DNA of 64,000 nt from Cyanidioschyzon merolae. Taxonomy: Eukaryota. The position numbers and the translations under genes were made by a program. The notes below the pieces were generated by a model. It was not told where the DNA came from. It did no database searches and worked only from the letters and a program-made list of their open reading frames with translations. Below, piece after piece: positions 757 to 64,000 of the stretch (the first letter of the stretch is position 1; each line of letters starts with the position of its first letter). Location: NCBI GenBank assembly GCA_000091205.1, contig AP006487.2; one strand, given 5' to 3'.

Positions 757-2035
757 TTCGGAGTAGACGCGGCGCTACCCGTGTAGCACCGTATGCAGCG
801 CAGCCTCTCGTCGGAGAGCAGCGATTGAGGTTGCTAATGGGGTCTTTATGTGGTGAATCGAACTGGTGTAAAACTTCTTCCGAGTGTCCCCTAGCGCTCA
901 TACCAACACCCATGGACGTTACGTCGCTCGTATCGCGTACGCGGTGCGCGCTTGTCGCAGCACGTATTGCCGTGGCCCTTTGCGGGTCCGTCGAGCAACT
1001 TTGTACCACAGCTGCATGGCTTGCGCTCTTGTTTATGAGCCTGGTACGACGCGAGCCGATACGTTCCAGTCCCGACTGGAGCGCATCGGGTACCCGTTCC
1101 CGCTTGGAAGCTTGGGCACCCATCGCACTGCGTCGGCAGCGTTCCTAAATCGCGCATATCACCAACGATGGCCCGACACGAAATGGTTTCCGCGCGTCGA
1201 TTCTCTTCCTTCTGTCCTGAATAGGCGGAGAACATCATGGCTTGTCCATGCCTACCGGTGCATGAGCACCCATCCAGGAGTCGGTCGTGAGCGTTCTCGA
1301 TCAGTGCTCTGGAGGCCGCCAAGTTCATTTGAGGAAGCCCGACTTGCATGCGATGCGGCATGCAGCGGCGGGAAATGGCCTGCCGCTTCACACTGGGCGT
1401 AAAGTTGGGAGCAGTTGGCGTTGCTGACTCGCCGTTGTCGTTGTCGATGGCGAGTCGTGTACTTCGCTCGTGCTGAACTCGATGCAAAAATTGCTCGCTC
1501 GCATAGAAAACATGATATTCGAATCATGCGCATATGACGGACGGCGAATACGCGCTACAGCACATGGGCAAAGCTAGTCCACGCTGCGACTCGTATTCTT
1601 CCATCAAGCCCGAGGTTTCCCGATGGATAGGCCGAAGGTTTTCGCAGGTTTGCGATCAGCGCTAGCGCGGGCGCTGGGCATTCATTCGTGCTCCTGGCTT
1701 GTGCTTCGTCATCGAACTTGAGCTACTCCGCACCGCAATCATTCCCGGAAACGGCACTGGTTACTCTTCAACTGGCATGCATTTCGGTATTTCGCGGCAT
1801 CGACGACGGCGTACACTCCTGATGCACCACAGCGTAGAACTCTTGCTCCCGGGAGATGCCACTATTATCTTGCTTGCTGAACGTGTAAGCAGTTACGAAA
1901 CTAGGGCGCGCTGCTCCTCCATGCAAGTCGACAAATATCGTGTTCTGGAATCTGCTCTGATACATCCGTTCTACATCATAAATGAACGTATCATCTATGC
2001 TGGCGTCGTAGCTCGTTGTCCAGTACTGCGCGGCG

Positions 2036-3337
2036 ATGGTATTGCGGGTATCGTCCCGAGCGCGTCAGGCAGCGCTGCTGGTCCGCATCGACAAGGGCAT
2101 TGTAACCGGGACTCGCTTTGCGAGCTGGGGCGCTTTACACCAGGACTTGTTTGCTGGGTGGAAGGGCATGGAGTGGCCTGTCCGTTTTCATCGACTGCCT
2201 GGCGCTTTGCGGTTGACGGATACCGTTCTTCAGTTCCTGCCTCTGGATCGCGATGCAACCGTTCGCATCATACCGCTGAGTCGGGTGAAGCAGGTTCTGG
2301 TATCGGCCCCGGGAAGCCGCGTACACCTTCTAAAACTACAACTGGAGGATGCAACCTCCGCAGTTTTCGAGTTTGGCGGGGACCAGCGGTCCCGTGACCA
2401 GGCACGTGAGGCGATCGCTCGTGGGCTTCGGCGTCGTGGGGAGGTGGTGGCGGCGGCGGCGGCTGCAAGGCCCGTGGACGACCACGATCCGCTCTATCGG
2501 GAGCTGGTCGAGTCCGGTCTTGTTCCTGAGGATGTTTATCGCCTGTATGCGCCGTATCGGGAGGCAGCAAGCTGGCAGGCGAGGCTTTTCCAGGGTGGCA
2601 CGCTTGTTGAGGCACCCGCGCAACGTGCCGGTCTACCGTCGGCACTCTTATCGGAACTTCGACCCGCCGAGGAGAGCGGGCGCCGTGTCAAGTATCGCTT
2701 TGATCCGGCAACTATTCATCAGATCTTTGTAGAGGAACCTGCGGTTCAGCGCGCCTACGAGGATACAGTGGCTCGTGGCGTCCTTGATGAGAAAAGCTTC
2801 TGGAAAAAGTATGTTGAAATGCGGACGGCGTTGTCGGCATCTGCAAATGGAGTCAGGCCCAGTGATGCCCACGCTGCCGCACGTGCCTTTTTTGCCAAAT
2901 ACGAACAGCATACTCGAGATCATTCAAGCCGGAGCGATCATGAGAACGAGGCTGCGGGAGCTTCGCAGAGCGCGCTCCCTCTCGACGTGGACCTTCGCCG
3001 CAACGAATACGCCTCGCAGGAGCATCGTGAGGAGCACCTCGCTGATGCCCTCGAGCTCCTCCATCGTTTCAACCGTCATGGTCAACTGGTAATGGATGCG
3101 AGCCACTTTCGACCGGAAGAGCAGGAGTGGTTGAAACGTTCTTCCCTGATTCTCGAAGAGCTGGTGGAATCGCCTGCCTCCGATTCCAGCGATGACAACG
3201 TTGAGCTCGACGGCCGCGCCTGCGACGCAACAGTGCTCGCCGCTGGCCTGCTTCCCGCTCCATTTCAAATAGAGCGGGTCGCTGGTGAAGCCTATCGTGC
3301 AGCACTTTGTGCGCTCTCCGATGCAAATCTGTGCTAG
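2036..3337 (+). CDS. TFIIH subunit p62/Tfb1-like protein (PH-like N-terminus plus BSD-type motifs). The start codon is uncertain.
   Basis: A 433-aa ORF with an N-terminal PH-like segment, then LYRELVESGLVPEDVYRLY and VLDEKSFWKKYVEM (BSD-domain FW..Y pattern), and an acidic C-terminal region. Family assignment is by eye only. Confidence 0.45.
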   Translation: MVLRVSSRARQAALLVRIDKGIVTGTRFASWGALHQDLFAGWKGMEWPVRFHRLPGALRLTDTVLQFLPLDRDATVRIIPLSRVKQVLVSAPGSRVHLLKLQLEDATSAVFEFGGDQRSRDQAREAIARGLRRRGEVVAAAAAARPVDDHDPLYRELVESGLVPEDVYRLYAPYREAASWQARLFQGGTLVEAPAQRAGLPSALLSELRPAEESGRRVKYRFDPATIHQIFVEEPAVQRAYEDTVARGVLDEKSFWKKYVEMRTALSASANGVRPSDAHAAARAFFAKYEQHTRDHSSRSDHENEAAGASQSALPLDVDLRRNEYASQEHREEHLADALELLHRFNRHGQLVMDASHFRPEEQEWLKRSSLILEELVESPASDSSDDNVELDGRACDATVLAAGLLPAPFQIERVAGEAYRAALCALSDANLC

Positions 3338-13153: not shown

Positions 13154-14887
13154 ATGCACGCGGGGGCTTTTTTGTCGGCACAACCAAGTGGTACGCTGGG
13201 TTACACGGCTAACCTTTGCCAGAGTTCTTTCGGCAAGCACTTGGATGCTCACTCTACGGCGCTCGGAAGCGCTGTACCCGCTTTCCGACGTTCACGTCAC
13301 CGGCGGGGCGCAGGCGCCTTGCTCCTGCGACGCCGGTCGCTCCTCGCCGAGTGCGAGCAGCGTGGCAGACTGCTCAGGTCCGCAGCTACGAAAGGACAGA
13401 GGGACGTCGAAAGGCACACCGCTACAAAGACGCTGGTGCTCACTCGACCGGTCTTTTACTCGAGGTGTCCTCAGCACCACAAGGCGTTCGAGAGACCAAT
13501 AGCACGCTGGATGCAGGCAGCTTCGCTGTCGAGAACAGGCGGAACAGCGCGTGCCTCGGTGCCAAGCTTCCCGACGGCGCTGCGCCACATTGCGAACACT
13601 CTCCAGGAACCGCTTCAGTACACAGACTTTGTTGCAGTGGAGCGCGCGCGTCGGCATGTCGAGGCGCTGCTGCGGGGCGGGCCCCAGAACCTACCGGCTT
13701 TTGAGTTTCTGGCACCTGTCTCCGAGGAAGCGCCGCAAAATGCTCGCGGGCCGCGGAACCGCGCAGCGCCGTCGCGCTATCCCTCGCGAAGCCCGGGCGG
13801 TGTTGCACCACCCCATCGCTACTATGAGTTACGCTTGCGGCCACCGGGTGAAGAGATCGTTCTGCGGTCTAGCGATTATAAGGAGCGATGCTGTGGGCGC
13901 ATGGGCGAGGAATGCCTCGCTAGCCAAGACTCGAATGGTGTCCAGTCATCGAGCGGCTCTTGCGAGCGCGAAGGGACTGCGTTTATTCGAGTTCCAGGGG
14001 TTGTAGATTGGACGGCGAAAGGCGCTCTCGAGAAATGGTTTGCACGAGCATCTCGTTGGCAACTGTTTGACGACGGCACCTTTGCTACCACCCAACGGCC
14101 GGTGATTGAGCTTTCCCATCGCGAGGAGTCGGCAGCAGCCGCACCGTTCGCTGAGCCAGTCGTTGGATTCCGGATACATGATCGCCAATGGAGCCGCTAC
14201 CTCTGCAACCATCCACGCGTCATCGCGATCGGTGACGTACATGGCTGTATCACAGAGCTGCAGGACCTACTCCGCGTCTGCGACTATCGACCTGGCGACG
14301 AGTTGATTCTGCTCGGAGACCTGGTAGCAAAGGGCCCCGATTCGCAAGCCGTCGTGCAAATGGCCCGTGAAATCGGTGCTCGGGCCGTGAGAGGCAACCA
14401 CGACCACGAGGTCATTCGTTGTCGGGAAGCAATGATGCGAGGCCACGATCCCAGCTACGCCTCCGTCGATCATCAGCGTATCGCGCGGCAACTGAGCCAA
14501 CAGGAGCACGAATGGTTGCGGAGCTGCCCCTGGTACATCCGCTCAGAGGATCTGGAAACGGTCTTTGTTCACGCCGGATTCCAGCCGGATGTGCCTTTCG
14601 AGGAACAGCTGCCTCGCCACATGATGAATCTGCGTTCTGTGCTCGAAAACGGTGCTCCAAGCGCTCGCCACTCGAATGGCATGGCTTGGGCGCGCCTCTG
14701 GAAAGGTCCGCTTCGTGTTGTATTTGGACATGACGCATACATGGGCCTCCAGCTCTGGGACAAGTGCATCGGCCTGGATACCGGATGCGTGTATGGTGGT
14801 AGACTCACAGCGCTGCTTTTGCCCGAAAATCGCCTGATATCTGTCCCTGCACGAAAGATGTACGTTGCTCCACGCAAACGAGGATGA
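13154..14887 (+). CDS. ApaH-like / bacterial-type PPP-family metallophosphoesterase (Ser/Thr phosphatase or diadenosine-tetraphosphatase-like). The catalytic domain is roughly 14200-14884; the long N-terminal region is unassigned and the start is uncertain.
   Basis: IAIGDVHGC (nt 14222-14248), LGDLVAKGPDS, RGNHD, VFVHAGF and VFGHDA are the GDxHG-GDxxDRG-GNH[DE] calcineurin-like phosphoesterase signatures. The GDLV..GPDS form resembles ApaH/ALPH-type enzymes. Confidence 0.65.
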   Translation: MHAGAFLSAQPSGTLGYTANLCQSSFGKHLDAHSTALGSAVPAFRRSRHRRGAGALLLRRRSLLAECEQRGRLLRSAATKGQRDVERHTATKTLVLTRPVFYSRCPQHHKAFERPIARWMQAASLSRTGGTARASVPSFPTALRHIANTLQEPLQYTDFVAVERARRHVEALLRGGPQNLPAFEFLAPVSEEAPQNARGPRNRAAPSRYPSRSPGGVAPPHRYYELRLRPPGEEIVLRSSDYKERCCGRMGEECLASQDSNGVQSSSGSCEREGTAFIRVPGVVDWTAKGALEKWFARASRWQLFDDGTFATTQRPVIELSHREESAAAAPFAEPVVGFRIHDRQWSRYLCNHPRVIAIGDVHGCITELQDLLRVCDYRPGDELILLGDLVAKGPDSQAVVQMAREIGARAVRGNHDHEVIRCREAMMRGHDPSYASVDHQRIARQLSQQEHEWLRSCPWYIRSEDLETVFVHAGFQPDVPFEEQLPRHMMNLRSVLENGAPSARHSNGMAWARLWKGPLRVVFGHDAYMGLQLWDKCIGLDTGCVYGGRLTALLLPENRLISVPARKMYVAPRKRG

Positions 14888-32289: not shown

Positions 32290-33576
32290 TCAGCATTCCG
32301 ACAACTCGAAGCGTTCTGTGCCAAAGTAGCGCTCCGCAAACCATCCGATACCCGGTACCACCAATCCCTGTTCGTTGACGCCGCGATCGACGGCGCTCAC
32401 GACAAGGCGTACATTCGTCCATCCGTTGCCACATACCGCGGCGATAGCCTCGGGGCTGGCGATCAGCGACAGAACAATCATGTTACTTTGCATACACCCG
32501 ATGCGTGCCAGATCCGTAAGCACCGTGTTTAACGTTGCACCAGTGTCCAGCACCGGAAGCAGAATAAGGAGTTTGCGACGCGCAACGCCTGGTGGATAGC
32601 GGTGAAACTCGATCATGCGATTTCCGTCTGCACTGGCGACGACAGCGACTTTTCCAATGCGAACCTCCCGGATGACTTCACGAACACCATGCTCCATGGC
32701 TTCACCCCCTGGGCTTACGCTGATTGCCGCTATTCTGTTTGAGAACGAAAACCCCTGATAAACCTCACCTGTAGGTGTCGTGACTCGTTTCGTTTGAAAC
32801 GGCAGCATGTTCAGGGCCTCCTCCACTAAAAGGCGAATCATTCGGTCGACATAGAAGATGAACTGGTCCCTGGAAGCATCACAACGGCGGAAGCACGTAT
32901 GCAGGGCGCGAACCTGGCCTGTCAGCGGCATCTCATGCAGGTTTGTGTACAACCGATTGAGTCCACGCTGTTCAAGTTTTACCGCGATATGTTTCACCAG
33001 CAGGTCGATGGCAATGACGTTCTCGACGCCGCGTTGTATAATGATGTCGGCAAGTCGTTTTTGTGGATTGATAAAGTTGTCCAGCGCTGGTTTCACAGTC
33101 TTCTCATACTGGGCAAGAACGGACTCGACTGATCGACCGCGCTGAACAACATCACGTTGGATACGTCGACACAAGCATACATCCGCATCTTCGTCGACGA
33201 AAACCTTTAAATGCAGCAGCTCTCTGACTTTCTCATGATAAAACGTCAAGATTCCCTCCAGAATCAACACTTCTGTACCGCTGGGGAGCGTGATCTCCGG
33301 TCCACAGCGCTGGTGCGTCACGTAGTCGTAGCTCTGAAGGGACACGCTCTTGCCCAGCGCCAGCTCCTTGATCGCCGCAGCGCAGGACTCAAAGTCAAAC
33401 GCATTTGGCGAATCAAAGTCGTACTCTAGCGGATCGCAACCCGGCGGTAGGCCGTGGTAGAACGAGTCCAAGCAGAGCAGCGCGCACTGGTGAGACCCGA
33501 TCGCAGACACGATCCGCTCCACAACAGAGGATTTACCCGCAGCGGAGGGCCCTGCCACGCCAATAACAAAGAGCAT
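32290..33576 (-). CDS. Bifunctional uridine-cytidine kinase / uracil phosphoribosyltransferase
   Basis: N-terminal P-loop IGVAGPSAAGKSSV (uridine kinase) and a C-terminal UPRT domain (..LRA.....R.....G..I..ILRAG..M.....VGIQR.E); 428 aa. Confidence 0.9.
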   Translation of the reverse strand: MLFVIGVAGPSAAGKSSVVERIVSAIGSHQCALLCLDSFYHGLPPGCDPLEYDFDSPNAFDFESCAAAIKELALGKSVSLQSYDYVTHQRCGPEITLPSGTEVLILEGILTFYHEKVRELLHLKVFVDEDADVCLCRRIQRDVVQRGRSVESVLAQYEKTVKPALDNFINPQKRLADIIIQRGVENVIAIDLLVKHIAVKLEQRGLNRLYTNLHEMPLTGQVRALHTCFRRCDASRDQFIFYVDRMIRLLVEEALNMLPFQTKRVTTPTGEVYQGFSFSNRIAAISVSPGGEAMEHGVREVIREVRIGKVAVVASADGNRMIEFHRYPPGVARRKLLILLPVLDTGATLNTVLTDLARIGCMQSNMIVLSLIASPEAIAAVCGNGWTNVRLVVSAVDRGVNEQGLVVPGIGWFAERYFGTERFELSEC

Positions 33577-44331: not shown

Positions 44332-44900
44332 CCAGGCCTTCAACGCCGTTCTAAGTCGAAGGACGGCAGTGTACAGTAGTGGCGAGAGGCCCGCCCTAGA
44401 CAAGAAGTTTCCAATTGATGTGCAGACGCCTCCCAGTTTTCCTCGACCGCCCACCCATTACTGCTTCCAACTTTTTCTCATACAGTTCGACATAAAGAGG
44501 TTGTCCAATAAAATTTCATCTTGTCCACTCTGGAGGTTTCGTCTCCAGCACCGAACATTTCCTGAGACTGATTTTTTTCCATTGCCAAAACGTTTACTCA
44601 GGCCAGCGTTCTCCGATTATGCGCATTTTTCTTTTCCTACTTTTTTTGTTTTATTTTTTCAGTGCGCGGTGAAGTATCCGTCAACCCCCTACCTCCATGT
44701 TACATTACCCATACTTCATCTCGGATATTCTGGTCGTTTCGTACGTCCTATTGTGTGTGCCTAGTGCCTGCCGAAAGCGACCGCAATGGCGCGTATAGCA
44801 CCGGTGCGGTCGCTGCACGGAGACAGAACGGCGTTGCCGTACCACAAAGGGTGTCGACTTGAGGCGTGGTATCGATGGTGTCCCTGTTGTCTCGTCTTTT
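44320..44900 (-). mobile_element. Degenerate short Fanzor-derived element (copy 3) retaining the conserved 3' segment and a decayed C-terminal coding remnant.
   Basis: 44369-44580 aligns with 56343-56540 (agtagtggcgaga..cccgccctagac...gtgcagacgcctccca...catcttgtccactctggaggt). 44330-44370 aligns (reverse complement) with copy 1 at 300-350 (actgccgtccttcgacttagaacggcgtt). Confidence 0.45.
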
Positions 44901-50173: not shown

Positions 50174-51802
50174 CTATTTCGATCTGGTATCACGTCCGGC
50201 CTTGAGCAATTCATCGACGAGCAGAAGTTGTGTGGTGATTGTCGAGGCCAAACTAAGCGCGTGCCGTTTCGGCCGGCAGCAATCAACGATGCCGCGTCCG
50301 AGCGGCTCTACCAGTTCACCAGAGTGCGCATCCAGACCCACCGTTCGCCCGGCTTCGTGGGCCTCGATCATCTGCAGGACGGTTTCCTGTGCGTCTAGGC
50401 CGGAATTCTCGGCGAGCGTCTTTGGAATCACCAAAAGCGCATCGGCAAAGGTCTGGACACCGAGGCGTGCTCGACCCTGGACAGTTTTGCTGTACGCTTG
50501 GAGGTGCTGATACGCTGCACACTCGAACGCCCCACCTCCGGGTACGACATAGGCGTCATCCAGGAAATGCCGGGCAGTATGAAGGCCGTCCCGCACGGCA
50601 TCCTTCAGTTGTTGCAGCGTTTGCTTGTCGGAGCCCCGCAGCACGAGCGTGCAGCTGCGCGCTGTCGGGGGCGCCTCCACGAAGGTATATTTGTCCTCTC
50701 CATGGGTTTCTTCAAAGACTCGTACCGCTTTTCCCAGCACCGATGGATTGAGGTCATCCAGGGAATTCACAGCCGTACCGCCACACGCAAGAACGAGGCG
50801 TTCCATGTTGCGGCGCTTTGCCCGCCGCAGCGCCATGATTCCTTCGCGTGCTAGCATCTCCAGTGCATCCGGCGAGATGCCCTTTTGATTGACGATCAGG
50901 AATCCCGCTTTCGTGCCTACCTCATCACAGACTTGGCGCTTCAGACGCAAAATTTTTTCAACTTGATGAGCAACAGCCTCGCGCTCGGCCTGTGCGAGTC
51001 GCTCTCTCTGCCCTGCACTAGAGTAGAAGAACCCGCCACCTAGCTCGGGTTTCTCGTACTCGAGCGAGACATTGCAGGTGAGCACGTACGCGTTCTCCAG
51101 ATCCTTTGGCATATCCGGGTGCCGCGTGCCATGATCTAGAACCAGACCTCGCACCAAGCTCGAGTGCATCGCTGTGCGCGACTCTATTGTCATTATTTCC
51201 ACCATGAAGAGATCGATAGGTTCGTTATCGTGATGCACGATCAGCGCTGCATCGGCAACGAGGTCAGAAATATGCGCTACCAAAGCGTCATCTGAGAGCT
51301 TCGTCGCGAGCGCACAGCGAACGGCCCGTCCGAGCTGTTCGCGGTCGTTGCGATCAACGGCGATCTGTACACTGGGAATAAAGCTTCGGAGCAGCTCGGT
51401 CCGGGCCAACTCAATCCCGTCCACGAGGTGCCGCGGGTGAATACCGTCCACGAGCGGTCGTTCCGCCTGGCGTAGGATCTCACCAACCAGCAGCACGACA
51501 CTAGTGGTACCATCACCGCACTCGTCGTCCTGCGCAGTCGCGGCCCTTGCGATGATCTTGGCTGTAGGATGAATGATCTCCATGTTATGAAGCAGCACCG
51601 CGCCGTCCTTGGTAAGTTTGAGCTCCCCGCTACCGCTCACGAGCAGCTTCAGGGTGCCACGCGGCCCCAGGTTCGATCGCAGGATATCCTCGAGCCCGCC
51701 CGCCGCAGTGATGCTTGCGTGCAACGCCAAGCCACGACGGGAGACCTCAGCGTGGGGATTCAAAAACTTGACAGCTGGGGCAGCGCTCATTGCAGGCAAC
51801 AC
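50174..51802 (-). CDS. CCT6: T-complex protein 1 (CCT/TRiC) subunit zeta
   Basis: LNPHAEV....AL..NI.AA.GL.D.LR.NLGPRGT.K.LVSG.G..KLTKDG.VLL..M.I.HPTA..IA.AA.AQDD..GDGTTS.VLL.GE.L is collinear with CCT-zeta. Full-length group II chaperonin. Confidence 0.9.
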   Translation of the reverse strand: MLPAMSAAPAVKFLNPHAEVSRRGLALHASITAAGGLEDILRSNLGPRGTLKLLVSGSGELKLTKDGAVLLHNMEIIHPTAKIIARAATAQDDECGDGTTSVVLLVGEILRQAERPLVDGIHPRHLVDGIELARTELLRSFIPSVQIAVDRNDREQLGRAVRCALATKLSDDALVAHISDLVADAALIVHHDNEPIDLFMVEIMTIESRTAMHSSLVRGLVLDHGTRHPDMPKDLENAYVLTCNVSLEYEKPELGGGFFYSSAGQRERLAQAEREAVAHQVEKILRLKRQVCDEVGTKAGFLIVNQKGISPDALEMLAREGIMALRRAKRRNMERLVLACGGTAVNSLDDLNPSVLGKAVRVFEETHGEDKYTFVEAPPTARSCTLVLRGSDKQTLQQLKDAVRDGLHTARHFLDDAYVVPGGGAFECAAYQHLQAYSKTVQGRARLGVQTFADALLVIPKTLAENSGLDAQETVLQMIEAHEAGRTVGLDAHSGELVEPLGRGIVDCCRPKRHALSLASTITTQLLLVDELLKAGRDTRSK

Positions 51803-52850
51803 TTAGCAGGCACGTAAACGCAGAAGCGTTTGCACTGGTGCTTCGAAAAAGTGCGCAGCGCTGCGGCACCTCCGCGGCTTTCGACTCGCATCGCGTGACG
51901 CGCGTGACATGCGTGTCGCCCATCGATGCTTCTTTCGTGTTCGTTGCTGAGAACTCTAGAGCGCTACATCGATGGAATCTATGGAGCGCCTTTTATGATG
52001 CGATAAATGCGCTCGACCTGGAAAGCGACCACCATACGCTTACCGGTGTTCATAGGTTTCAGAATTTCTTGATTGGTCTTTTTGTGGGTCACAGCGTTGC
52101 AGCTGCCAATGATTGAGGGCTTTCTGTGTGCTTGCAGGCAGCGCAAGAGCGCAGCAGGCAGTCTGGCTAGCGTGTGCAGTGCGCACACTGTATCATCATC
52201 ATGGTCCACTTGTGTGGATCCGCTACGAAACAGCAAAAGGGCTCCGACACCCTGGTACGGAACGCGCGTCGTGATCGATCTAGAAGGAGATTACCGGCTG
52301 CTGCGTGATCCTTAGCACACGAGAAGCCTTCCGTGATATCAGGCAATGCGGCACCCGTACCTAAATGCGCGCCATTTGTTGTGCAATAGATGCAGTGATT
52401 GGAGCACAACGGTCACCGCAGAATCATCGTAAAGTAAAGGCTTTCAAAACGCGTACGCAATATGAAATCGATTCCTTCTATGCTTCAGTCTCTTCAGAAT
52501 GAAGCGGTTGCTGCCTTGCATCCTCATCGCCTATTCCTCATCGCAATGCTTTACAAAATATTACAAACAACTCACTTCGAGGACGTAGCAGGCACTTTCC
52601 AGAGCAATAGACAAGTCAACAGGTGCTTCCGCAACGTCTCAAGTCGAGTGCACTTTCGCGTACCTGAGACATCAGATTATGACGCTCAGCGCTCCGTCTT
52701 CGTTCGAGCGCGTCGATCAAACAGAAGCGGCGCGCAGTGCGCACCAGCGTTGAAGCGTCAGCTACAGGCTACCAGCGACCGGGAGCGAGAAACTCGGAAA
52801 CCGGGTGCTACAGCGTCGGTGCTCGGGAACGAGCCTGGTTATCCGCCGTC

Positions 52851-53531
52851 ATGGTAAGATCAAACCTGGGACTGCTTGCGAGCTGCGGTGCCGCGTACTG
52901 GAGACGACTGGCAACGAGCGCTGGGTCGGCGGCTTCCGCTGACGCCAACAGCGCAGTCGCCGCGACAAAGCAGTTGACGGGTGTTGCCGGTCGCTATGCG
53001 GGCTCGTTGCTGCGGGTCGCGATGAAGGCGAACCAACTGAACGAAGTCCACCGTGACGTTGACGCGCTCGAGCGTCTCCTGCGAGAGAATCCCCGGATCG
53101 AAGAGTTTCTTCGGGATCCGACGCGCTCGCAGGTAGCGAAGCAGCGTGCTCTCGAGAAGCTACTTGACGCCGCAGGTGTGCAAACAGTCTTTGTGCGCAG
53201 ACTTCTTGATCTACTTGCGGATAACCGGCGCTTGAGTCACGTGTCGCAGGTGCTGCATTCGTTCCAGTCTGTGATCGCTGCGCAGCGGGGCTCAACGCAG
53301 GCAGTCGTTACGAGTGCAGTGCCGCTCACCGAGTGGCAGCTGGCTCTTTTGCGCCAGCGGCTGCAGCGACGCTTTTATCCGGATATGCCGGATGCCCGTG
53401 TTGATCTGATCACAAGGATTGATCGGGACCTCATTGGAGGCTTCACCGTGCAGCTCGGCGACAAGTTCATGGACTTGAGCCTCAAGTCTGAGGTTCGTCG
53501 TCTCCGAGACGAGCTCGCACAGCAGGTATAG
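52851..53531 (+). CDS. ATP5O: ATP synthase OSCP (subunit O / delta), mitochondrial-type, with a presequence
   Basis: GRYA.AL..A...N.L..V..D.......L......F..P and a C-terminal ...IGGF.V..GD...D.S..S....L OSCP pattern. The start MVRSNLGLLASCGAAYWRRLATSA looks like a presequence. The six-frame ORF begins upstream at 52737. Confidence 0.7.
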   Translation: MVRSNLGLLASCGAAYWRRLATSAGSAASADANSAVAATKQLTGVAGRYAGSLLRVAMKANQLNEVHRDVDALERLLRENPRIEEFLRDPTRSQVAKQRALEKLLDAAGVQTVFVRRLLDLLADNRRLSHVSQVLHSFQSVIAAQRGSTQAVVTSAVPLTEWQLALLRQRLQRRFYPDMPDARVDLITRIDRDLIGGFTVQLGDKFMDLSLKSEVRRLRDELAQQV

Positions 53532-55591
53532 TGCCGATCGGTGTCCGCGAGGTTACGGACATGTGAGGTGCTTGAAACCTGAGGAGCTGTCGGAGGTTGT
53601 TTGTGTCAGAGCCTGACCTGCTCTCACTCTCTGTGCCCTAGCAGTGTTGAAGGAATGTTGTCGCACTTGCAAAGCAGCGCATGCTCGGGAGCAGGCTCGA
53701 GACCCTGGTGTATAACGATGGAATGCAGGGGCTCGGCGTTCCAGCAGTAGTTTGACGCAGCTCCAGACGCAGAAGGGTTATCCTTGTATTGTGTACGATC
53801 TGAACATCTGCAGTGGCACGCTCCGCGAGGTCCGTTGCAGAACTAGTCTCAATTTATGCTATTGAATAGCGTACGCGGACACGAAAGGATGTCTGGACCG
53901 TCATAGACGAGCAGCAACTCGCTGCTGGTGCAGTGCGGCCATGCTCTGATGGACGACTTGTGTTCGCCCTCGTGATCGACCGATCGATCGATGGATACTT
54001 GGCGTGCCCGTGGATGTATATCCGTAAAAGCCGTGCTCTAAGCGGCGTTCGCACAATAGAAAATGGGAATCCATAGGAACCGGCCGCACAAGTCGTGCGG
54101 AAGATGATGCGTTGGGAGCCATAGCGCTACACGCTTCTAGTCTATGGAAAAGCATGTCATGCAGTTCTGTAATCTGCTGCGCAATGTATCCGCATCAGTT
54201 GGGTTCTCTTAAGATCCTAAGTGTATGACGTTCCTCGTGTATGCGATACTTGGATGCGAGCATGATAGCAAACTCCAGGCTGGAGCTTGATGGATGAAAT
54301 GCGTATCCTGCGGCCCTCGGAGTTGTGCCTTTTGGATCGCGACATGTCCAGAGACGCGCACTTGCCATGTCACCTTGTTGCTCGTTTGACTGAGATGATA
54401 AGCAGCCGCTAGACTGCGACGCGAATCCGCATCATTGCAACGCCTTACAGGGGCGCGACAGCATCCCCGCTACGCAAAACTGTATCATGGTTGATGTCAG
54501 GCTATCTCAGGATGTGGCTCTCTGTACTTGGTATCCGACTCGACGCTAGAGTCGTGCTATGCAGCGGATCGCCTGAGGCCACAGGAGTACCGATTTGTCT
54601 GGTTACGAGGTAGGTAAACTGTCTGGCTTTCCGTGATAGAGGTATAAGGTCATTGGATAATGTGGATAAGCTGTGACATTTTGCGGTACCGTGCGAACAC
54701 TTTTGTTCAAGATTCTATGAAATCCTTGTCAAAGCTGCAGCTCGTCGTCGTGCTGCTTACTATGCTCATCGGTTGTCAAATCGCAGGTAGTTAGCAATGT
54801 GCTTCCAATGCACTTGTTTCTGGGCAGCTATTGGAATCATCAATGCGAGGCTATTCCTAACCAAAAAAGGAGGCAATGGCACACGTTTTGACGCAGTTCG
54901 AGTCAGCACATGGGAATCCTCGCTGGCGTCTCGGAAGCGCATGATTGGTTGAAAGAATGTATCGAGCGGTCCGCACGGATGAAGTAAGCGCCAGCTTTTC
55001 TCGCATAGAGAGCGGCTCTTACAAATTAGAGCCATTTTGAAACAAATTTGAATTGCTGTGTGCTCATGAAACTCTGACAAACGTACGAAATAAGATTTCA
55101 GAAGACCTAGCACCAGCTCCAGAACTGTACATTACAGTTCTCCACTCCAAAGCGCTCGCACCCAGGTATTCGCGCTCACTCGAGGCCTGCCAAAGCGCCA
55201 ACCGGGAACCTGGGCAAATCCCGGACAGCGCCTAGCTGCTGCCATGAACATTGCCCAACGTCACTCTACAGGCCGAAGCGATCGTGCCCTTGACTTTCAT
55301 AGATATCGAATTCATAATGACTGCAGCTGAAGCGCGCGTCGGGTACGAGAGCTTTTATGCAGTCTCGCCCGGACGCCGCACCGTACGACATACACCCGCG
55401 ACGCGATGTATGCCTCCATTCCCACCATTACAGGCTCTATTGCGTACACGCTCTTGCATCCCTTCACCGCTGCTGGCAAAGATGTGGTACACAATTGGAT
55501 AGCGCATCTTTCGTGGAAGCGCATCCGCAACTGCGGAAACGGTGCTGCCACATCGGTCGTTATGCGAGCCTACGCAATGAACCTAGTATAA

Positions 55592-56050
55592 TCATTCGTT
55601 GCTCGTGGCCAGCAGCAGGGTGTACATACGCGCCATCGACCAGAAGCCTCGTTTATCACCACAGCGCAGCAGGTTCCCAGCGTCGCAGTTCAGTGGAGAC
55701 GACGGCTCCGGCTCTGAGAGGAGCAGTTGAATCGCCCTCAGACACGACGCAAGGCTCCAGGCTGGCGACCACGCCGACTGCAGAATGTCAAGGCAAACTT
55801 CGCCGGTGCGGAAGTTGATGTTTGGGTGAAAAATTGGAGTCAGAAAGCGCACTGTCGGTGGCACGAGCGGGTACGCAGCCGGTAGTGTCAGCGCGACGCG
55901 AAAACAGCCTCCCTCGTAAGGTGTAGCGGCGGGTCCGCGCAGGTAGCCTTGCAGCCGGAGTGGGTTGCCTTCCTCGGGCTCCAGGCAGAAGTTTGTCGGG
56001 TCTTCGCGGAGCTCTCTAAGCTCTGTGAGCAGACGTTTCTGCAGAAGCAT
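55592..56050 (-). CDS. Ubiquitin-conjugating enzyme E2
   Basis: UBC fold with the active-site motif FHPNIN..TGEVCLDIL and a downstream W/P; 152 aa. Confidence 0.85.
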   Translation of the reverse strand: MLLQKRLLTELRELREDPTNFCLEPEEGNPLRLQGYLRGPAATPYEGGCFRVALTLPAAYPLVPPTVRFLTPIFHPNINFRTGEVCLDILQSAWSPAWSLASCLRAIQLLLSEPEPSSPLNCDAGNLLRCGDKRGFWSMARMYTLLLATSNE

Positions 56051-56284: not shown

Positions 56285-56560
56285 TATTTCGGATGACGGC
56301 AGCGACAACAAACGCCTTTCCAGAAAAAAAACGCGCCCGCGAGTGGGGCAAAGTAGTGGCGAGAAACCCGCCCTAGACGAAACGTCTACAGCTGAGGTGC
56401 AGACGCCTCCCAACCGTTTTGGACCGGCCAACTACTACAGCTTGCAATTCTTTCTCATATAGGAACACTTTGAAAGGTTGTCCCACAAAATACCATCTTG
56501 TCCACTCTGGAGGTCTCCCTCCAGCATCGCACACCGTCTGATGTTGATGGCGGCGTTCAA
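56285..56560 (-). ncRNA. Conserved 3' segment of the Fanzor-like element (copy 2), a candidate omega-RNA scaffold; about 150 nt of it lie beyond the stop codon.
   Basis: Same conserved block as copies 1, 3 and 5. Read on the minus strand, ...ggcgtctgcacctcagctgtagacgtttcgtctaggg... contains the hairpin tagacg-ttt-cgtcta. Confidence 0.35.
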
Positions 56561-58663
56561 GTCTCGGTTCACAATCTCCATACGTTTCTTGCCGCCGCTA
56601 GTAGAACTGACCGATGCAAGCAATCCTCGAACTGTCGCCCTCCTTTCCATTTGCTCCTCCGTCAGCGGTCCGTACTTTTGTATATCCTCGGGGCTCCTCT
56701 GGCACTTTTCCATCTCGACTCTCTGAAGTGTACACCCTAGCTCATGGTGTGTTTACGATGTTCGGAACTCATCTACGGGTATCGTGACGAAACGCCTTGC
56801 GCACTCTTTGTATGTTCTTGTCGTTGGAGCTGGCGTAATCCCTTTTTGGGTCTTCCAGCGTCCTGCTCCGGATGCTAGTACAAGCCTCTGACTTTCATCC
56901 TCCTTCAAAGCGCTCAACTGACTGAAAAAGATGGCAAATGCCCGCGGTTTCCCACAGTATAGATTCATTCGCAGACGAGCCCACCGAGGCTTTGTATACG
57001 CTTCTCACAGCGCATCCCAGTCGGCAACACGAACTAGCATGAATTCCCGAAACGCTTAAAAGCCGGCTCCTCGGCTCGTCACCTCGCTCAAAGCTTCTAG
57101 GCGATCCTTCATTTCTGCAGTCCATGTCTTGATTTCCTTCCTTGCATTCATGATTGCCGATCCTCGAGAGTACCCCGCTCTAGACACTCAACAGACGCGT
57201 ATCTTTCTGACATAAGTTGCGGTCAGTACCATCTTCCGCACGCTTGGGTACTGCGTCGGTAACGATATATGTGTTTCCGGGGTCCGCGCCAACGACAAAG
57301 TCGTTCTCATGCACTTTCGGCGTCGAAGGATCCACCTCCTTCTCATCTTCTTGCATCATCGAGGACGGGACTGGACGCTATGGGTTGGACCACCGATCGT
57401 GTACACACATAGCCACTCCATCGGTTTCGATCATCCCAGTCAATGCCTTTCGTTTGTTAACTTTGAGACGTTTGAGATGGAAGACGTTCTTCCAGTACGT
57501 CTCCCGGTTTTGGCCAGTGAACTCTATCTTCCTTACATTGAACTCCGGACTGATCTCCTTCATGATGCCGTGAAGGATTCTGGAGTCGATAGTCACGAAA
57601 TGTGACTTGATATTGGACAATGGAACGACGGTGAAGCGCTTCCCCATTAGGACAGACTTCCGTCTCTCCCACTCTTCATTTGTCTCTTCACTCAGCTTCA
57701 TTTCTGCCTTGCGTTCGAGCTCTCGGTCCAGAAACACGAAATACCGCAGGATGAGGCGATAGTATCTTTCCTTATCGTTTTTCAACTCTGATATCTTTTC
57801 TGTTGGATTCGCCAGCCCCAGTACCGCACGATGCTCTTGTATAGCCGCGCGGATGACGGAATCCTCATCCGTGCTCCCATTTGACGCCTTCTTGTCGACG
57901 CATCCGATCTCATCTTTATGCTTACGATCCTTCGTGATGCCATTGATCATCGCCCCTTTTCCTTTGCGAGGGATGCCTGGGTAGAGTGCAAACACGGCGC
58001 GTTTCATGAACCGCTCGAGGTTCTCTTTCAAATGGTTCTTCAGGTTCGCAATGTACTTCATTGCCACGTACTTGTAGCTAGCCTGGTTACCCTTTTATCG
58101 ATTACCCTTTAAGCGGAATTCCGCGAAGTTTTCATGGAGAGCGTGGACTACCTCATTTTCCTTCCGCGCTTTCTCTGTACCAAGCTTCAGGTGACGAATA
58201 GAGGTCTAATCGAAGAACTCATCGGGAGGCTCGATTGTTTCCATGTGTGTCACGCCTCCGTACATCTCCTTCACCGGATTCATTTGTACTGACGACGCCT
58301 TTATCATACGCATGGTGTGCAACTCGACACGGTTTCTAATAGCGTTTCGCAATTTTCTCCGTAGGGATCCTTGATATGTTTAAGGAGGCAGGCTTTCACC
58401 ACCATATGGTCGTACAGTCGTCTTTCCTGCCGCCTCCGACTTGGGGCCGCTTTTTGCTTCATTTTCTCTTCCTTTTCTTCTGGACTCAGCACTTTTTGTT
58501 GTTCTTTCTGGCAGCCGGTGACCCTGGGCCTCCAGGATCGTCGACTTGCACTTGTACAACATTCCTTTTGATAGTTATTTTTTTGAAAAAGAATGCTCTC
58601 TAAACGCCCCTGATGCATACTGCAAAACAACACGTGAATGCACTTTCTTGAAGTTTTAAGCAC
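56435..58663 (-). pseudogene. Near-full-length Fanzor / TnpB-like RuvC nuclease gene (copy 2) interrupted by several in-frame stops and frameshifts. It is either a pseudogene or contains small unrecognised introns.
   Basis: Minus-strand translation gives a long N-terminal region (58663-57380); then Ruv[18 protein letters not shown] (about 57250-57300); then VTIPVDEFRTS, which matches the TnpB V-D-P-R-Y-T-S-Q zinc-finger lead (56753-56968); then RuvC-III RDLNAAINIRRC (56435-56713). The order and spacing are those of TnpB/Fanzor. Confidence 0.6.
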
Positions 58664-59110: not shown

Positions 59111-59441
59111 CTAGAGCGAGACGCCGTGCACCGCGATGGTGGCGATCGCACCAATTGGCGGCGTCGGCTGCCCCCTGTCGTGTCTACACGTCATATGGGT
59201 GTCACGAGAAAAATGTCCGTTATAGGTGCATAGGTATAGGAGCAGACGCCCGTTCCGTTACACCGGCGTCGGAATGGGCGTTATGTACAGGTTCTCCGTT
59301 CGCGCGTCACAGCGCGAAAATGACGTGGAAACACGGCAAGCCTTACGGTACCCGCCAGCTTTCGTATAGCGCAAAAGTTCCTGGTTTAAAGAACGAATGG
59401 GTTCTACGAATCAGCCTACAAATAGATATCTCTTCTCAAGT

Positions 59442-59936
59442 ATGGCGAAAGGAACTGCACTAAGTCAGAAGAAGCGGTTTACAACAGCACGCCGTCGACA
59501 CCAACGAGCTTTTCGCTTTATGTTGATGCTCGTCCTGGTAATGTTTTGGTTGGAAAAAGTGATAATCGTACAACCTACGGCAGCAGCAACACCAACGCCG
59601 ACGGCAACACCGACACCTTCGCCTACGCCAACTGCGACACCAACGCCTACGCCTACACCGACACCGACACCGACACCGACGGCAACAAAAACGCCTACAC
59701 CGACGGCAACACCGACACCGACACCGACACCGACGGCAACAAAAACGCCTACGCCTACGGCAACCGCGACACCGACACCAACACCTACGCCTACGCCAAC
59801 AGCAACACCGACACCAACGCCTACGCCAACTGCGACACCAACGCCTACGCCTACGCCTACGCCGACTGCAACTCCGACGCCAACACCAACTGCGACACCA
59901 ACTGCAACACCGACACCGACGGCAACACCAACTGCA

Positions 59937-59971
<35 letters not shown>

Positions 59972-60326
59972 AACGCCAACTGCGACACCAACGCCTACGC
60001 CTACGCCAACTGCGACACCGACACCGACACCAACGCCTACGCCAACTGCAACGCCGACACCAACACCTACGCCAACTGCGACACCAACGCCTACGCCAAC
60101 TGCAACGCCGACACCTACACCGACACCTACACCAACTGCAACACCAACGCCTACGCCTACGGCAACCGCGACACCGACACCAACATCTACGCCAACGCCT
60201 ACGCCAACTGCAACACCAACGCCAACTGCAACACCAACGCCTACGCCTACGCCTACGCCGACGGCAACACCAACTGCGACACCAACTGCAACACCGACTG
60301 CAACTCCGACGCCTACGCCAACTGCA

Positions 60327-60379
<53 letters not shown>

Positions 60380-60602
60380 AACGCCTACGCCAACTGCAAC
60401 CCCGACACCGACGCCGACACCAACACCAACGCCAACTGCGACACCAACGCCTACGCCTACGCCAACTGCAACACCGACACCAACGCCTACGCCAACTGCG
60501 ACACCAACGCCTACGCCTACGCCTACGCCGACTGCAACTCCGACGCCAACACCAACTGCGACACCAACTGCAACACCGACACCGACGGCAACACCAACTG
60601 CC

Positions 60603-60643
<41 letters not shown>

Positions 60644-60998
60644 AACGCCAACTGCGACACCAACGCCTACGCCTACGCCAACTGCGACACCGACACCGAC
60701 ACCAACGCCTACGCCAACTACAACGCCGACACCAACACCTACGCCAACTGCGACACCAACGCCTACGCCAACTGCAACGCCGACACCTACACCGACACCT
60801 ACACCAACTGCAACACCAACGCCTACGCCTACGGCAACCGCGACACCGACACCAACATCTACGCCAACGCCTACGCCAACTGCAACACCAACGCCAACTG
60901 TGACACCAACGCCTACGCCTACGCCTACGCCGACGGCAACACCAACTGCGACACCAACTGCAACACCGACTGCAACTCCGACGCCTACGCCAACTGCA

Positions 60999-61033
<35 letters not shown>

Positions 61034-62654
61034 AACGCCAACTGCGACACCAACGCCTACGCCTACGCCAACTGCGACACCGACACCGACACCAACGCCT
61101 ACGCCAACTGCGACACCGACACCGACACCAACGCCTACGCCAACTGCAACGCCGACACCAACACCTACGCCAACTGCAACGCCGACACCTACACCGACAC
61201 CTACACCAACTGCAACACCAACGCCTACGCCTACGGCAACCGCGACACCTACACCGACACCTACACCAACTGCAACACCAACGCCTACGCCTACGACAAC
61301 CGCGACACCGACACCTACACCGACGCCAACACCAACTGCGACACCGACACCAACGCCAACTGCGACACCTACACCAACACCTACGCCGACGGCAACACCG
61401 TCACCTACGCCTACCCCGGCAATAGCCGGTGTTGCATTCTCTGCGGTGGTCAGTGTGGTGGACAAGACCGTGTATGTTGATGTTGCGGTCGTTCTCCAGG
61501 ATAACTTAGAAACCAAGCTGAATGGAACTGGAGCGAACGTCACTGTGTCGGATAACTGCGATAGTATCTTCGTGTCAATAGCCTCGCGGTTCGCCGACTG
61601 GTACGAGAGAAGCAGCCTCGACGTTCAACGTGTATTCAGCGCAACATCAGCAGTGAATGCAAGCTACAATATCTCTATCTTAGCACCTACCGCGCTCGTA
61701 TCCAACGTGACGAAGATCTCTACCAATTTTACAAGTAGCGTTCCAAGTATCCTGCCAAGTGGAGCGAGTCTCGCGGCGATCTCGACTCCGAAAGTTGTGC
61801 CAACACCCACACCCACACCTACACCGACACCGACACCAACACCGACAACTTCAGCAACGCCTACGCCTACCGTCTCAGTGACGCCTTCACCGACAGCAAA
61901 TGTTACACAGGTTTCTGTGGGTGGCGGCGCTGCGGTCTGCTTCCCAGCGGGTGCTTCGGTGCTTATTGATGGTCTTGGCAAGACGCGGCGGATAAGCGAA
62001 TTGCGCCCGGGTATGACCGTAATCGGCGTCGATTCACGTGGGCGACTGGTCGAGGACACAGTTCTGGGGTGGTTGCACAAAGAGACTCGCGCCACAGCAG
62101 AAATCCTATTGATCAAGACGCGTTCGGGGAAGGAGCTGCGCTTGACGAGGCAGCATCTGGTGTACCGGATGAACGAGAACCCGAGAGTCCCGGGCCGCAA
62201 AATGACAGCTGTGTCGAGTCTTTCACATGAGAAAGAGCAGCACATACAGAAGATCCTCGAACTGGAGACGTCTGTAGGTGAAGCGGTTTTCGCAGAAGAT
62301 ATCCGCATAGGCGACGCCTTATTCGACATTGCTGCGCACCTGCCGGACCCCGTGGTGGCAATTGACACTCTCGTTACGAGTGATGGCCTCTATGCGCCGC
62401 TGACGCGCTCAGGGCGCCTTGTGGTAGACGGAATTCTTGTTAGTTGCTACGGGACCTATGCATCGCACACTGTGGCACATGCTGTATTGTGGCCTGCGCG
62501 GGTTGAACTTTTGCGCAAGATATGGGGAGCAGCGCTCGGCTCTGACAGCACGGAAGGTATCATGCCATATGCAGAAGGACTGTACCGCGTATGGACAAGT
62601 GCAGCACGTATTCTGAAAGATAGTCGCGTGAATGCTATAGCTGTTGCCTGCTAA
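59442..62654 (+). CDS. Signal-anchored, mucin-like (Pro-Thr-Ala)n repeat glycoprotein with a C-terminal Hedgehog-type Hint (Hog) autoprocessing domain followed by a sterol-recognition-like tail.
   Basis: The N-terminus has a basic stretch followed by hydrophobic [12 protein letters not shown]. About 610 aa of [10 protein letters not shown] repeats follow, then an N-glycosylation-rich spacer (NGT, NVT, NAS, NIS, NFT). From Cys at nt 61938, the sequence GGGAAV|[12 protein letters not shown]...[10 protein letters not shown] (TxxH)...[26 protein letters not shown] shows the Hog-domain hallmarks (G|CF cleavage site, TxxH, SCY). A candidate upstream start also exists at 59397. Confidence 0.8.
59581..61418. 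repeat. Coding tandem-repeat array (ACN-CCN hexamers) organised into a higher-order repeat of about 666 bp present about 2.4 times; it encodes the PT-rich domain.
   Basis: The 60-nt string ctacgccaactgcgacaccaacgcctacgcctacgcctacgccgactgcaactccgacgc occurs at 59821 and 60487. All three forward frames and the reverse strand are open across the array. Confidence 0.9.
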
Positions 62655-64000
62655 GAATGCGCTGCGAAGCAAAGAAGGGGGAGAGCTGATACTGGAGACC
62701 AACTCTGAGATGCCTTGCAGACACTTTGCGACTTTTTTTACGAGTATTATTCGTAGTAGGATTCTCCGAACCGAAAAAGATCCAGGGGGAGGCTGTTTTG
62801 ATATGCGGACCAAGAACGAAATCTTAGCACCAATAGGGAAGGCGGAGTGCCTTGCAGAGAGAGGATTTCCGCAAAAGAGAAATCCAGTCAGAAACATTTG
62901 TCGTCAAAAAAATGAACTGGAGAAAAGAACCAACCGTGGCTACAGCATCCGAGGCGGTCCGATTGGAAAAGATGCGATCAACTCTACAGGTGCATGGATC
63001 GTTGAGAATTCCATGGGTGCTCTCAGGTGCCAAAGGCATCCGTCGAAATATGCTCGAAGTGAGAGATTATCGGTTTCGTATGTGGATATGCTCATGAACG
63101 GATTTGCGCGCAATCGAGATTCGATCGGAGGGAAGCACCCTGTACCCCAAATGGGATACACTCGCTCAAGTCGCGGGAGAAATGCTACAGTATATGATAC
63201 GTTAACCAGATTTTCGCTGGGCGGAAAAAGCCAAAATTGGTTTATAGCGGCTCGAGATTTCCTCTCAAGCACAGGAACGATAAAGGAAAGATTCACTATC
63301 AAAAGTGTAAACATATGAAAATTGCCGATTAGAACCTCGTAAGGTATGATAATGCCCACAAAAAAAAGCAAAGGCGTACAATTACAAGTACAGGACAGCG
63401 AACCTAACATGGAGAGAAAAAACGAAGAGAAAACGAGCAGGAGTGATTATCAAGAGTAAACTACATGTAAGACATGAAAACAGAAATATGATTAATACCA
63501 TGAAAAATTACAGAAAAAGATTCGCCCCTAGAAAAAGCATCCAAATCATAGTCGATATAAAGACTAGAACGGGTGCTAATAAGTACAGAGCGACGATTTA
63601 TAACATGGTAAATTTTTGGTCTAATATCAATTAGAAAGAAGAGAACCAAAAGAGTTGATATAAAGAGCATGCCGGAAAGTACTCTATTATTAAGGAGACA
63701 AAGCAGGGTAACAAAAGAGTCATGAAAAAAGGTGCTATGAAAATGCAGGCAGAGCTTGCCTCCAAATACTACGTAGAATAGAGCACATTATCTAAAAAAA
63801 CCCTGCCTTATACCTAAGAAGCTGTACCAAAATCGAAATCCGTTATAATAGCAACGCCCGGCACTGATCTATTCTGCAATCTAAAAACCAAGATATAGAA
63901 AAAAATGGAACAAAAAATCTTTAATAAAAAGCGGTAAATACAGAAAGAAAACTCGATATACAAGAAAGATAAAAATATGAGGATCATGGAGAATGGGGGG

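Follow-up and report, generated by a model that had tools for sequence, protein, structure and literature searches.

A Hog-only member of the subtelomeric Kelch/trefoil/Hog family with a long Thr/Pro/Ala array at the right end of chromosome 5 of Cyanidioschyzon merolae

Hog domains, the C-terminal autoprocessing domains of Hedgehog proteins, are also found outside animals, and a survey of red algae, mosses and protists (Burglin 2008) described non-Hedgehog proteins in which a signal sequence and an unrelated cargo precede the Hog domain; the tails that follow these domains were termed 'adduct recognition regions', their substrate being unknown. Here we consider a gene of this kind in a stretch of 64,000 nucleotides of the red alga Cyanidioschyzon merolae (assembly GCA_000091205.1, contig AP006487.2), the whole of which is called the window below. 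The gene, an open reading frame (ORF) at 59397-62654 on the + strand, is identified by gene order as CME205C (BAM79403.1), the last gene on the right arm of chromosome 5, and belongs, as a Hog-only variant, to the subtelomeric Kelch/trefoil/Hog (K/T/H) family already published for Cyanidiales. Its Hog domain is intact and probably cleaves itself from the precursor, with release of an N-terminal fragment of about 790 aa.

Neither the gene nor its family is new. The paper on the complete C. merolae genome (Nozaki 2007) lists a hedgehog protein, together with CCT6a, ATP5 and E2, among the genes at chromosome termini, and CME205C has been annotated as hedgehog-like since then; in a published table it stands as 'similar to hedgehog protein' in the class 'KTH variants: Hog'. 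Subtelomeric Kelch, trefoil and Hint genes of Cyanidiales, with Thr/Pro/Ala-rich linkers of varying length, were described as the variants K, T, H, K+T and K+H (Cho 2023), and a recent paper counts 17 Hog genes in C. merolae, which it reclassifies as non-Hh Hog (Plant Cell 2026). Chromatin marks on the Hog loci and haploid-biased expression have likewise been published. The first-pass annotation, made from the letters of the window, regarded Hog proteins outside Metazoa as sparsely described and this type of cargo as unusual, a view that does not stand, as red-algal Hog proteins and cargos rich in threonine were both reported in 2008 (a Thr stretch of about 200 aa in the choanoflagellate Hoglet and about 70 aa of Thr/Ser in the Thog of Xiphinema; Burglin 2008) and CME205C itself belongs to a published family. 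Compared with Hoglet and Thog, the array of CME205C is far longer and consists of Thr-Pro instead of poly-Thr, and with 615 aa it also exceeds the 'up to 365 aa' quoted for Cyanidiococcus linkers. CME205C resembles the other K/T/H members in its subtelomeric site, its Thr/Pro/Ala-rich linker, its C-terminal Hint/Hog domain and its haploid-biased expression; it represents the Hog-only variant, without a Kelch propeller.

The ORF is single and complete, with 1085 aa and a stop codon. The first-pass annotation was right about its existence and began it at 59442, which is Met16, the second in-frame ATG and an alternative start that would give a product of 1070 aa. Along the window, the genes for uridine kinase (32.3 kb), URO-D (39.4 kb), CCT6a (50.2 kb), ATP5/OSCP (52.7 kb) and E2 (55.6 kb) are followed by the Hog gene (59.4 kb) and the telomere, which is the order CME192C, CME194C, CME197C, CME198C, CME199C and CME205C of the published C. 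merolae list, where the next entry is the first gene of chromosome 6. Because of this agreement we identify the ORF as CME205C, an assignment made through synteny and literature tables and not by a direct sequence match: an exact search of the protein collection contained neither the 1085-aa nor the 1070-aa product, and a search of the same collection with the Hog domain returned metagenome fragments and Cyanidiococcus sequences and no C. merolae 10D entry. The CCT6a ORF of the window is 100% identical to that of C. merolae 10D, and the neighbouring genes are eukaryotic nuclear genes, tightly packed, each readable as an unbroken ORF. The stop codon of the Hog gene lies 1.34 kb from the telomere repeat unit of C. 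merolae, AATGGGGGG, at 63992-64000 (+), the very end of the window; since the window terminates exactly on this unit, its right-hand border is the end of a chromosome, by synteny 5R, and no further gene separates the Hog gene from the telomere. Subtelomeric site, Thr/Pro/Ala-rich linker and Hint domain, the features that define the K/T/H family, are thus all found here.

From N- to C-terminus, the protein consists of a basic and hydrophobic N-terminus, a Thr/Pro/Ala array, a spacer of 124 aa, a second short Thr/Pro linker and the Hog domain. The assignment of the C-terminus to a Hedgehog-type Hog domain, already proposed in the first-pass annotation, is supported both by profile and by fold. 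Pfam PF01079, the Hedgehog-type Hint module, matches aa 845-1065 (E=6e-37); its score of 127.7 bits is far above the gathering threshold of 29.7 bits, the match spans positions 10-207 of the 213 in the profile, and no other fold was assigned to this part of the protein. PF01079 is also the sole match in the full-length protein; this Pfam scan contained no HhN ('Hedge') signalling domain, and CME205C does not qualify as a bona fide Hedgehog ligand. A sequence search of solved structures returned human Sonic hedgehog (SHH; 7e2i, E=3e-15) and the C-domains of Drosophila Hedgehog (6td6, 6tyy, 1at0). In an AlphaFold2 model built on eight sequences, the core blocks of the Hog domain reach a predicted local distance difference test (pLDDT) of 74-92, and the top Foldseek matches of this model in the PDB are the Drosophila Hedgehog autoprocessing domain structures 6TYY and 1AT0 (E about 1e-10, target template-modelling score 0.85, root-mean-square deviation 2.8 A). 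From its CFPAGASV start onwards, the C-terminal part of the protein measures 238 aa. The Hint module proper occupies 61938-62456 (+, aa 848-1020) and holds a poorly modelled stretch of about 32 aa, roughly aa 928-959.

A published Gene Ontology analysis put the C. merolae Hog genes under 'protein splicing', which would make CME205C an intein, and the Hint fold is indeed common to inteins, which appear with BIL domains further down the Foldseek list as weaker structural matches. The best matches in both sequence and fold are nevertheless Hedgehog C-domains. The protein also has no C-extein, stopping about 65 aa past the SCY motif (...NAIAVAC) without a terminal His-Asn and a downstream nucleophile. 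We therefore reject the splicing reading as extremely improbable.

According to the published active site of Hedgehog, catalysis involves C1, D46, T69, H72 and C143, the last with a described role of its own, and all five positions are occupied in CME205C (all on the + strand). The nucleophile is C848 (61938-61940) in CFPAGASV, aligned to SHH C198 with F849 on F199; H894 (62076-62078) falls on the D46 position; T917 (62145-62147) and H920 (62154-62156) of the LTRQH motif align with T267 and H270 of the SHH motif LTAAH; and C1017 (62445-62447) in LVSCYG aligns with the SCY motif of SHH. The CFPAGASV start, the TxxH motif in LTRQHLVY and the SCY motif had been read from the translation in the first-pass annotation, and the Cys, Thr and His residues concerned sit at the catalytic positions in the alignment; the Gly-Cys-Phe junction that it also gave is in fact Val-Cys-Phe, the residue at -1 being Val847. 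The histidine at the general-base position had gone unnoticed there.

We compared these positions in an alignment of about 190 related sequences, made up of the relatives found by our searches, members of their clusters and the top representatives of a search through 1.84 billion library proteins; this search gave 2415 matches at E<=0.001, of which just 4 reached E<=1e-30. Counting the rows that cover each site, Cys1 is present in 140/140, His72 in 183/184, Thr or Ser at position 69 in 183/184 and Cys143 in 181/190. At the D46 position, the nearest relatives have His (121 rows) more often than Asp (58 rows), and at -1 they have Gly in 41 cases, Val in 18, Ser in 9 and Leu in 9, which makes Val the second commonest residue. 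In an engineered D46H/D303H Hedgehog, the variant whose structure is 6TYY, structure and activity were kept and the range of accepted sterols was broadened; by analogy, we infer that H894 would act as the general base in CME205C. With animal HhC, CME205C shares the Cys-Phe start, the TxxH motif, the cysteine of SCY and the fold as a whole, and its C-terminal tail is predicted, at low confidence, to be helical too; it differs in having His for the Asp general base, Val for Gly at -1 and an interval between TxxH and SCY that is about 27 aa longer than in Drosophila Hedgehog. The 2008 survey found Ser, Thr or Asp in place of the motif-J cysteine in the red algae and mosses it covered, whereas the proteins of Cyanidiales keep SCY.

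The C-terminal tail (62457-62651, +, aa 1021-1085) would be the equivalent of the sterol or adduct recognition region, which in Hedgehog is a helix-loop-helix; in a Hog domain, such a tail is expected to have about 60-100 aa. The first-pass annotation had seen a tail of about 65 aa after SCY, and the length is confirmed; helices are predicted at about aa 1026-1047, 1057-1073 and 1076-1084, in a part of the model that is of low confidence. A motif of 10 residues lines up with GIHWYSQLLY of SHH, including the position of SHH Y435, and the match of the second helix to SHH is below significance. The tail is conserved in the seven cyanidialean sequences aligned, and the PF01079 profile reaches into it as far as position 207/213. 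As a separate observation, its last residue, Cys1085 (62649-62651), has counterparts in all seven cyanidialean Hog sequences (P0001-P0007), which end in ...AAC or ...VAC, and a distant match (P0008) ends without Cys.

At the other end of the protein, a very basic leader of 22-37 aa is followed by a hydrophobic segment (59508-59573, +, aa 38-59), recognised by hydropathy, the core of which is only 14-15 residues long (aa 38-52) and reaches at best a mean hydropathy of about 2.3 in 15-residue windows. By eye, this segment lines up with the classical signal peptide of a Cyanidiococcus relative, and it is probably a signal peptide or a signal anchor.

The Thr/Pro/Ala array extends from 59574 to 61418 (+, aa 60-674), and of its 615 residues 306 are Thr, 235 Pro and 67 Ala, very close to the (TP/TA)n domain of about 610 aa recorded in the first reading. 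Its codons are mixed (ACA, ACG and ACT for Thr; CCA, CCG and CCT for Pro), which indicates a repeat maintained at the protein level and not a pure microsatellite. The composition would suit a dense O-glycosylation of the mucin or arabinogalactan-protein type. Self-comparison reveals a segmental duplication inside the array (59934-61037, +), in which 59934-60365 and 60606-61037 are 98.4% identical at an offset of 672 bp; this duplicated stretch of 432 bp may be a recent expansion or possibly an assembly issue in a repeat that is hard to assemble. An ORF of 692 aa rich in Gly and Val on the - strand and one of 644 aa in another + frame overlap the array, and we treat these long ORFs, as well as the extreme base skew, as by-products of the repeat.

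The array is followed by a non-repeat spacer (61419-61790, +, aa 675-798) of 124 aa, which has six N-x-S/T sequons, in keeping with its earlier description as rich in N-glycosylation sites; a seventh lies beyond it at N835. No Pfam family matches the spacer, a search of the protein collection gave no homologues of it, and a single-sequence AlphaFold model of it was uninformative (pLDDT 41). A single short motif, VTV..NCDSIF, is common to the spacer and a Cyanidiococcus ORF (18/34 match). The second short Thr/Pro linker and the segment before the cleavage site (61791-61937, +, aa 799-847) end at Val847.

From established Hedgehog chemistry, the following course can be proposed. The precursor would enter the endoplasmic reticulum (ER) through its N-terminal hydrophobic segment, and C848 would attack the carbonyl of Val847 in an N-to-S acyl shift assisted by T917 and H920; the resulting thioester may pass through C1017 and would be resolved either by water or by the hydroxyl of a sterol, which the helical tail would present and H894 would activate. 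The fragment of about 790 aa thus released would comprise the array of 615 aa, the N-glycosylated spacer and the short linker, with Val847 at its C-terminus, and would bear a lipid ester at this residue if a sterol were used. Once O-glycosylated, it would stand on the surface of a wall-less cell as an extended glycoprotein brush, tethered by lipid if a sterol is used. C. merolae encodes and expresses the cycloartenol synthase CMJ009C and protein O-mannosyltransferases of the GT39 type, so that both a donor of sterol and a route to O-glycosylation are at hand. By analogy with Hedgehog we consider self-cleavage of the domain quite likely, and give the attachment of a sterol somewhat less than an even chance.

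A released protein without lipid is accordingly an alternative to be weighed: the domain would cleave itself, but water or a nucleophile other than a sterol would resolve the thioester, and a soluble, secreted Thr/Pro/Ala glycoprotein would result. The name given to non-animal Hog tails, which leaves their substrate open, agrees with it, as does one review, according to which cholesterol capture is known for Hedgehog proteins only, and the tail of CME205C is modelled with a pLDDT below 50, with its second helix matching SHH below significance. Against it stand the histidine at the general-base position, a residue with which the D46H mutant still carried out sterol transfer, the presence of a sterol pathway, and the tail itself, which is conserved throughout Cyanidiales and into which the Pfam profile extends almost to its last position. 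We regard a soluble product as possible, at well under an even chance.

The review and the poor model of the tail also weigh against the proposed course as a whole, and with them stand several further points. The residue before the catalytic Cys (GGGAAV|CF) is the beta-branched Val847 instead of Gly, and we found no published experiment on cleavage or on a lipid adduct for any red-algal Hog protein. A published annotation table gives CME205C neither a SignalP signal peptide nor a Phobius transmembrane segment, so that entry of this copy into the ER is not secure; of the signal anchor named in the first-pass annotation, the hydrophobic core is real, but with 14-15 residues and no published call an anchor is not established. 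Finally, a study of 2017 found that Hog loci carry H3K27me3 and are moderately repressed, and the high expression value of CME205C in strain 10D given below is possibly inflated by multi-mapping with the near-identical CMG221C.

Arabinogalactan proteins combine a signal sequence, a long O-glycosylation domain rich in Pro, Ala, Ser and Thr, and a C-terminal device for lipid anchoring, the glycosylphosphatidylinositol (GPI) signal. By contrast with these classical proteins and with mucins, the presumed anchoring device of CME205C is a self-cleaving Hog domain. As a tentative proposal, CME205C and its paralogues might esterify a plant-type sterol to Val847, in replacement of the GPI signal, and so anchor an acid-resistant coat of glycoprotein on haploid cells, which lack a wall; the His naturally found at the general-base position would then give a broad tolerance of sterols. 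In the published data, most members of the K/T/H family are biased towards the haploid, wall-less cells, with support from the proteome, and CME205C itself rises from about 22 transcripts per million (TPM) in the diploid to about 533 TPM in haploid 10D (Plant Cell 2026).

A paralogue with another cargo is found on a metagenome contig (L004), where Kelch repeats and a Thr/Pro linker precede a Hog domain in which 9/245 residues differ from that of the window. Positions 1458-3095 of this contig and 61809-63445 of the window are 94.9% identical in DNA, including a common 3' flank at 62655-63445, and upstream of 61809 the similarity is only at the level of repeats. The Hog region with its flank (61809-63445) is a subtelomeric duplicated element that is shared by different cargos; since the point where the homology starts falls within the short Thr/Pro linker, the DNA that codes for the repeat may be the recombination junction at which cargos are swapped. 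Between the two Hog domains, the ratio of non-synonymous to synonymous substitution rates (dN/dS) is 0.23 (13 synonymous and 9 non-synonymous changes), and the 3' flank differs by 6%, from which we conclude that the catalytic domain is under constraint by purifying selection.

These results bear on the idea that CME205C is a decaying or silenced subtelomeric duplicate without a function of its own, its long repeat being a neutral expansion. The subtelomeric and duplicated state of the gene, with a sister copy at 7L, the H3K27me3 on Hog loci, the published table without a signal peptide, the internal array duplication at the 672-bp offset and transposon-like repeat fragments immediately upstream would all fit such a history. 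Decay is, however, difficult to reconcile with 1085 uninterrupted codons in which all catalytic residues are intact, with the dN/dS of the Hog domain beside a flank that differs by 6%, and with about 533 TPM in haploid 10D, and we consider it very unlikely. A conserved family member with an intact Hog domain is the reading that we retain.

The layout of CME205C has a parallel in Cyanidiococcus, where an ORF of 518 aa (contig L005) begins with a classical signal peptide, after which come a Thr/Pro array, a short N-glycosylated segment, a Thr/Pro stretch and a Hog domain. The deposited model of this gene (P0005, 289 aa; VWRR01000017.1, L005 5314-6870) is truncated, as it begins at an internal Met of the ORF, and about 3.4 kb separate the gene from the end of its contig. 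In C. merolae itself, published lists place a sister block at the left end of chromosome 7, with CMG221C, the near-identical sister of CME205C, and CMG003C, CMG004C and CMG005C. The CCT6a-ATP5-E2 block that adjoins the Hog gene in the window (50177-56050) is, by the same lists, duplicated at this end of chromosome 7; these housekeeping genes thus belong to the subtelomeric duplication.

Public annotations of such loci can mislead, as prokaryotic pipelines name Hog fragments in metagenomes 'ribosome-associated protein YbcJ' (P0011, P0013, P0016) and call a Gly/Val-rich gene opposite the repeat (L004 758-1525, -). Proteins encoded elsewhere in the window (13154-14887 and 32290-33576) recur in identical form, by the dozen, in metagenome assemblies of JGI and ENA (71 and 82 index blocks; L001-L003, L006-L015), so that an alga essentially the same as C. 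merolae 10D at these genes is widespread in the sampled environments.

Upstream of the Hog gene, the window contains a dispersed repeat: 58827-59116 matches 44574-44863 (84%), 56352-56533 matches 44375-44557 (77%), and 56357-56666 matches positions 1-314 in inverted orientation (77%). The copy at 44.4-44.9 kb resembles both ends of the copy at 56.35-59.12 kb without its interior of about 2.3 kb, which suggests, from the repeat structure, that a mobile element of full length lies immediately before the Hog gene and that the copy at 44.4-44.9 kb is a short form derived by deletion. On the - strand at 56435-58067, broken ORFs in several frames carry the motifs GADPGN, VDEFRTS and NRDLNAAINIRR, which as motifs alone are reminiscent of a RuvC nuclease of the TnpB/Fanzor type. 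The joined fragments were negative in Pfam and PDB sequence searches, and we therefore do not retain a transposase at 56.4-58.1 kb (-), the mobile element being backed by its repeat structure only.

Whether a Hog domain from outside the animals cleaves itself and attaches a sterol is a biochemical question for which CME205C and CMG221C would be suitable material, with a bearing on what Hedgehog autoprocessing did ancestrally: CME205C keeps all needed residues, with a His at the general-base position, and C. merolae is genetically tractable and makes sterols. If true, the esterification of a sterol by the CME205C family would be the first demonstrated protein sterylation outside animals.

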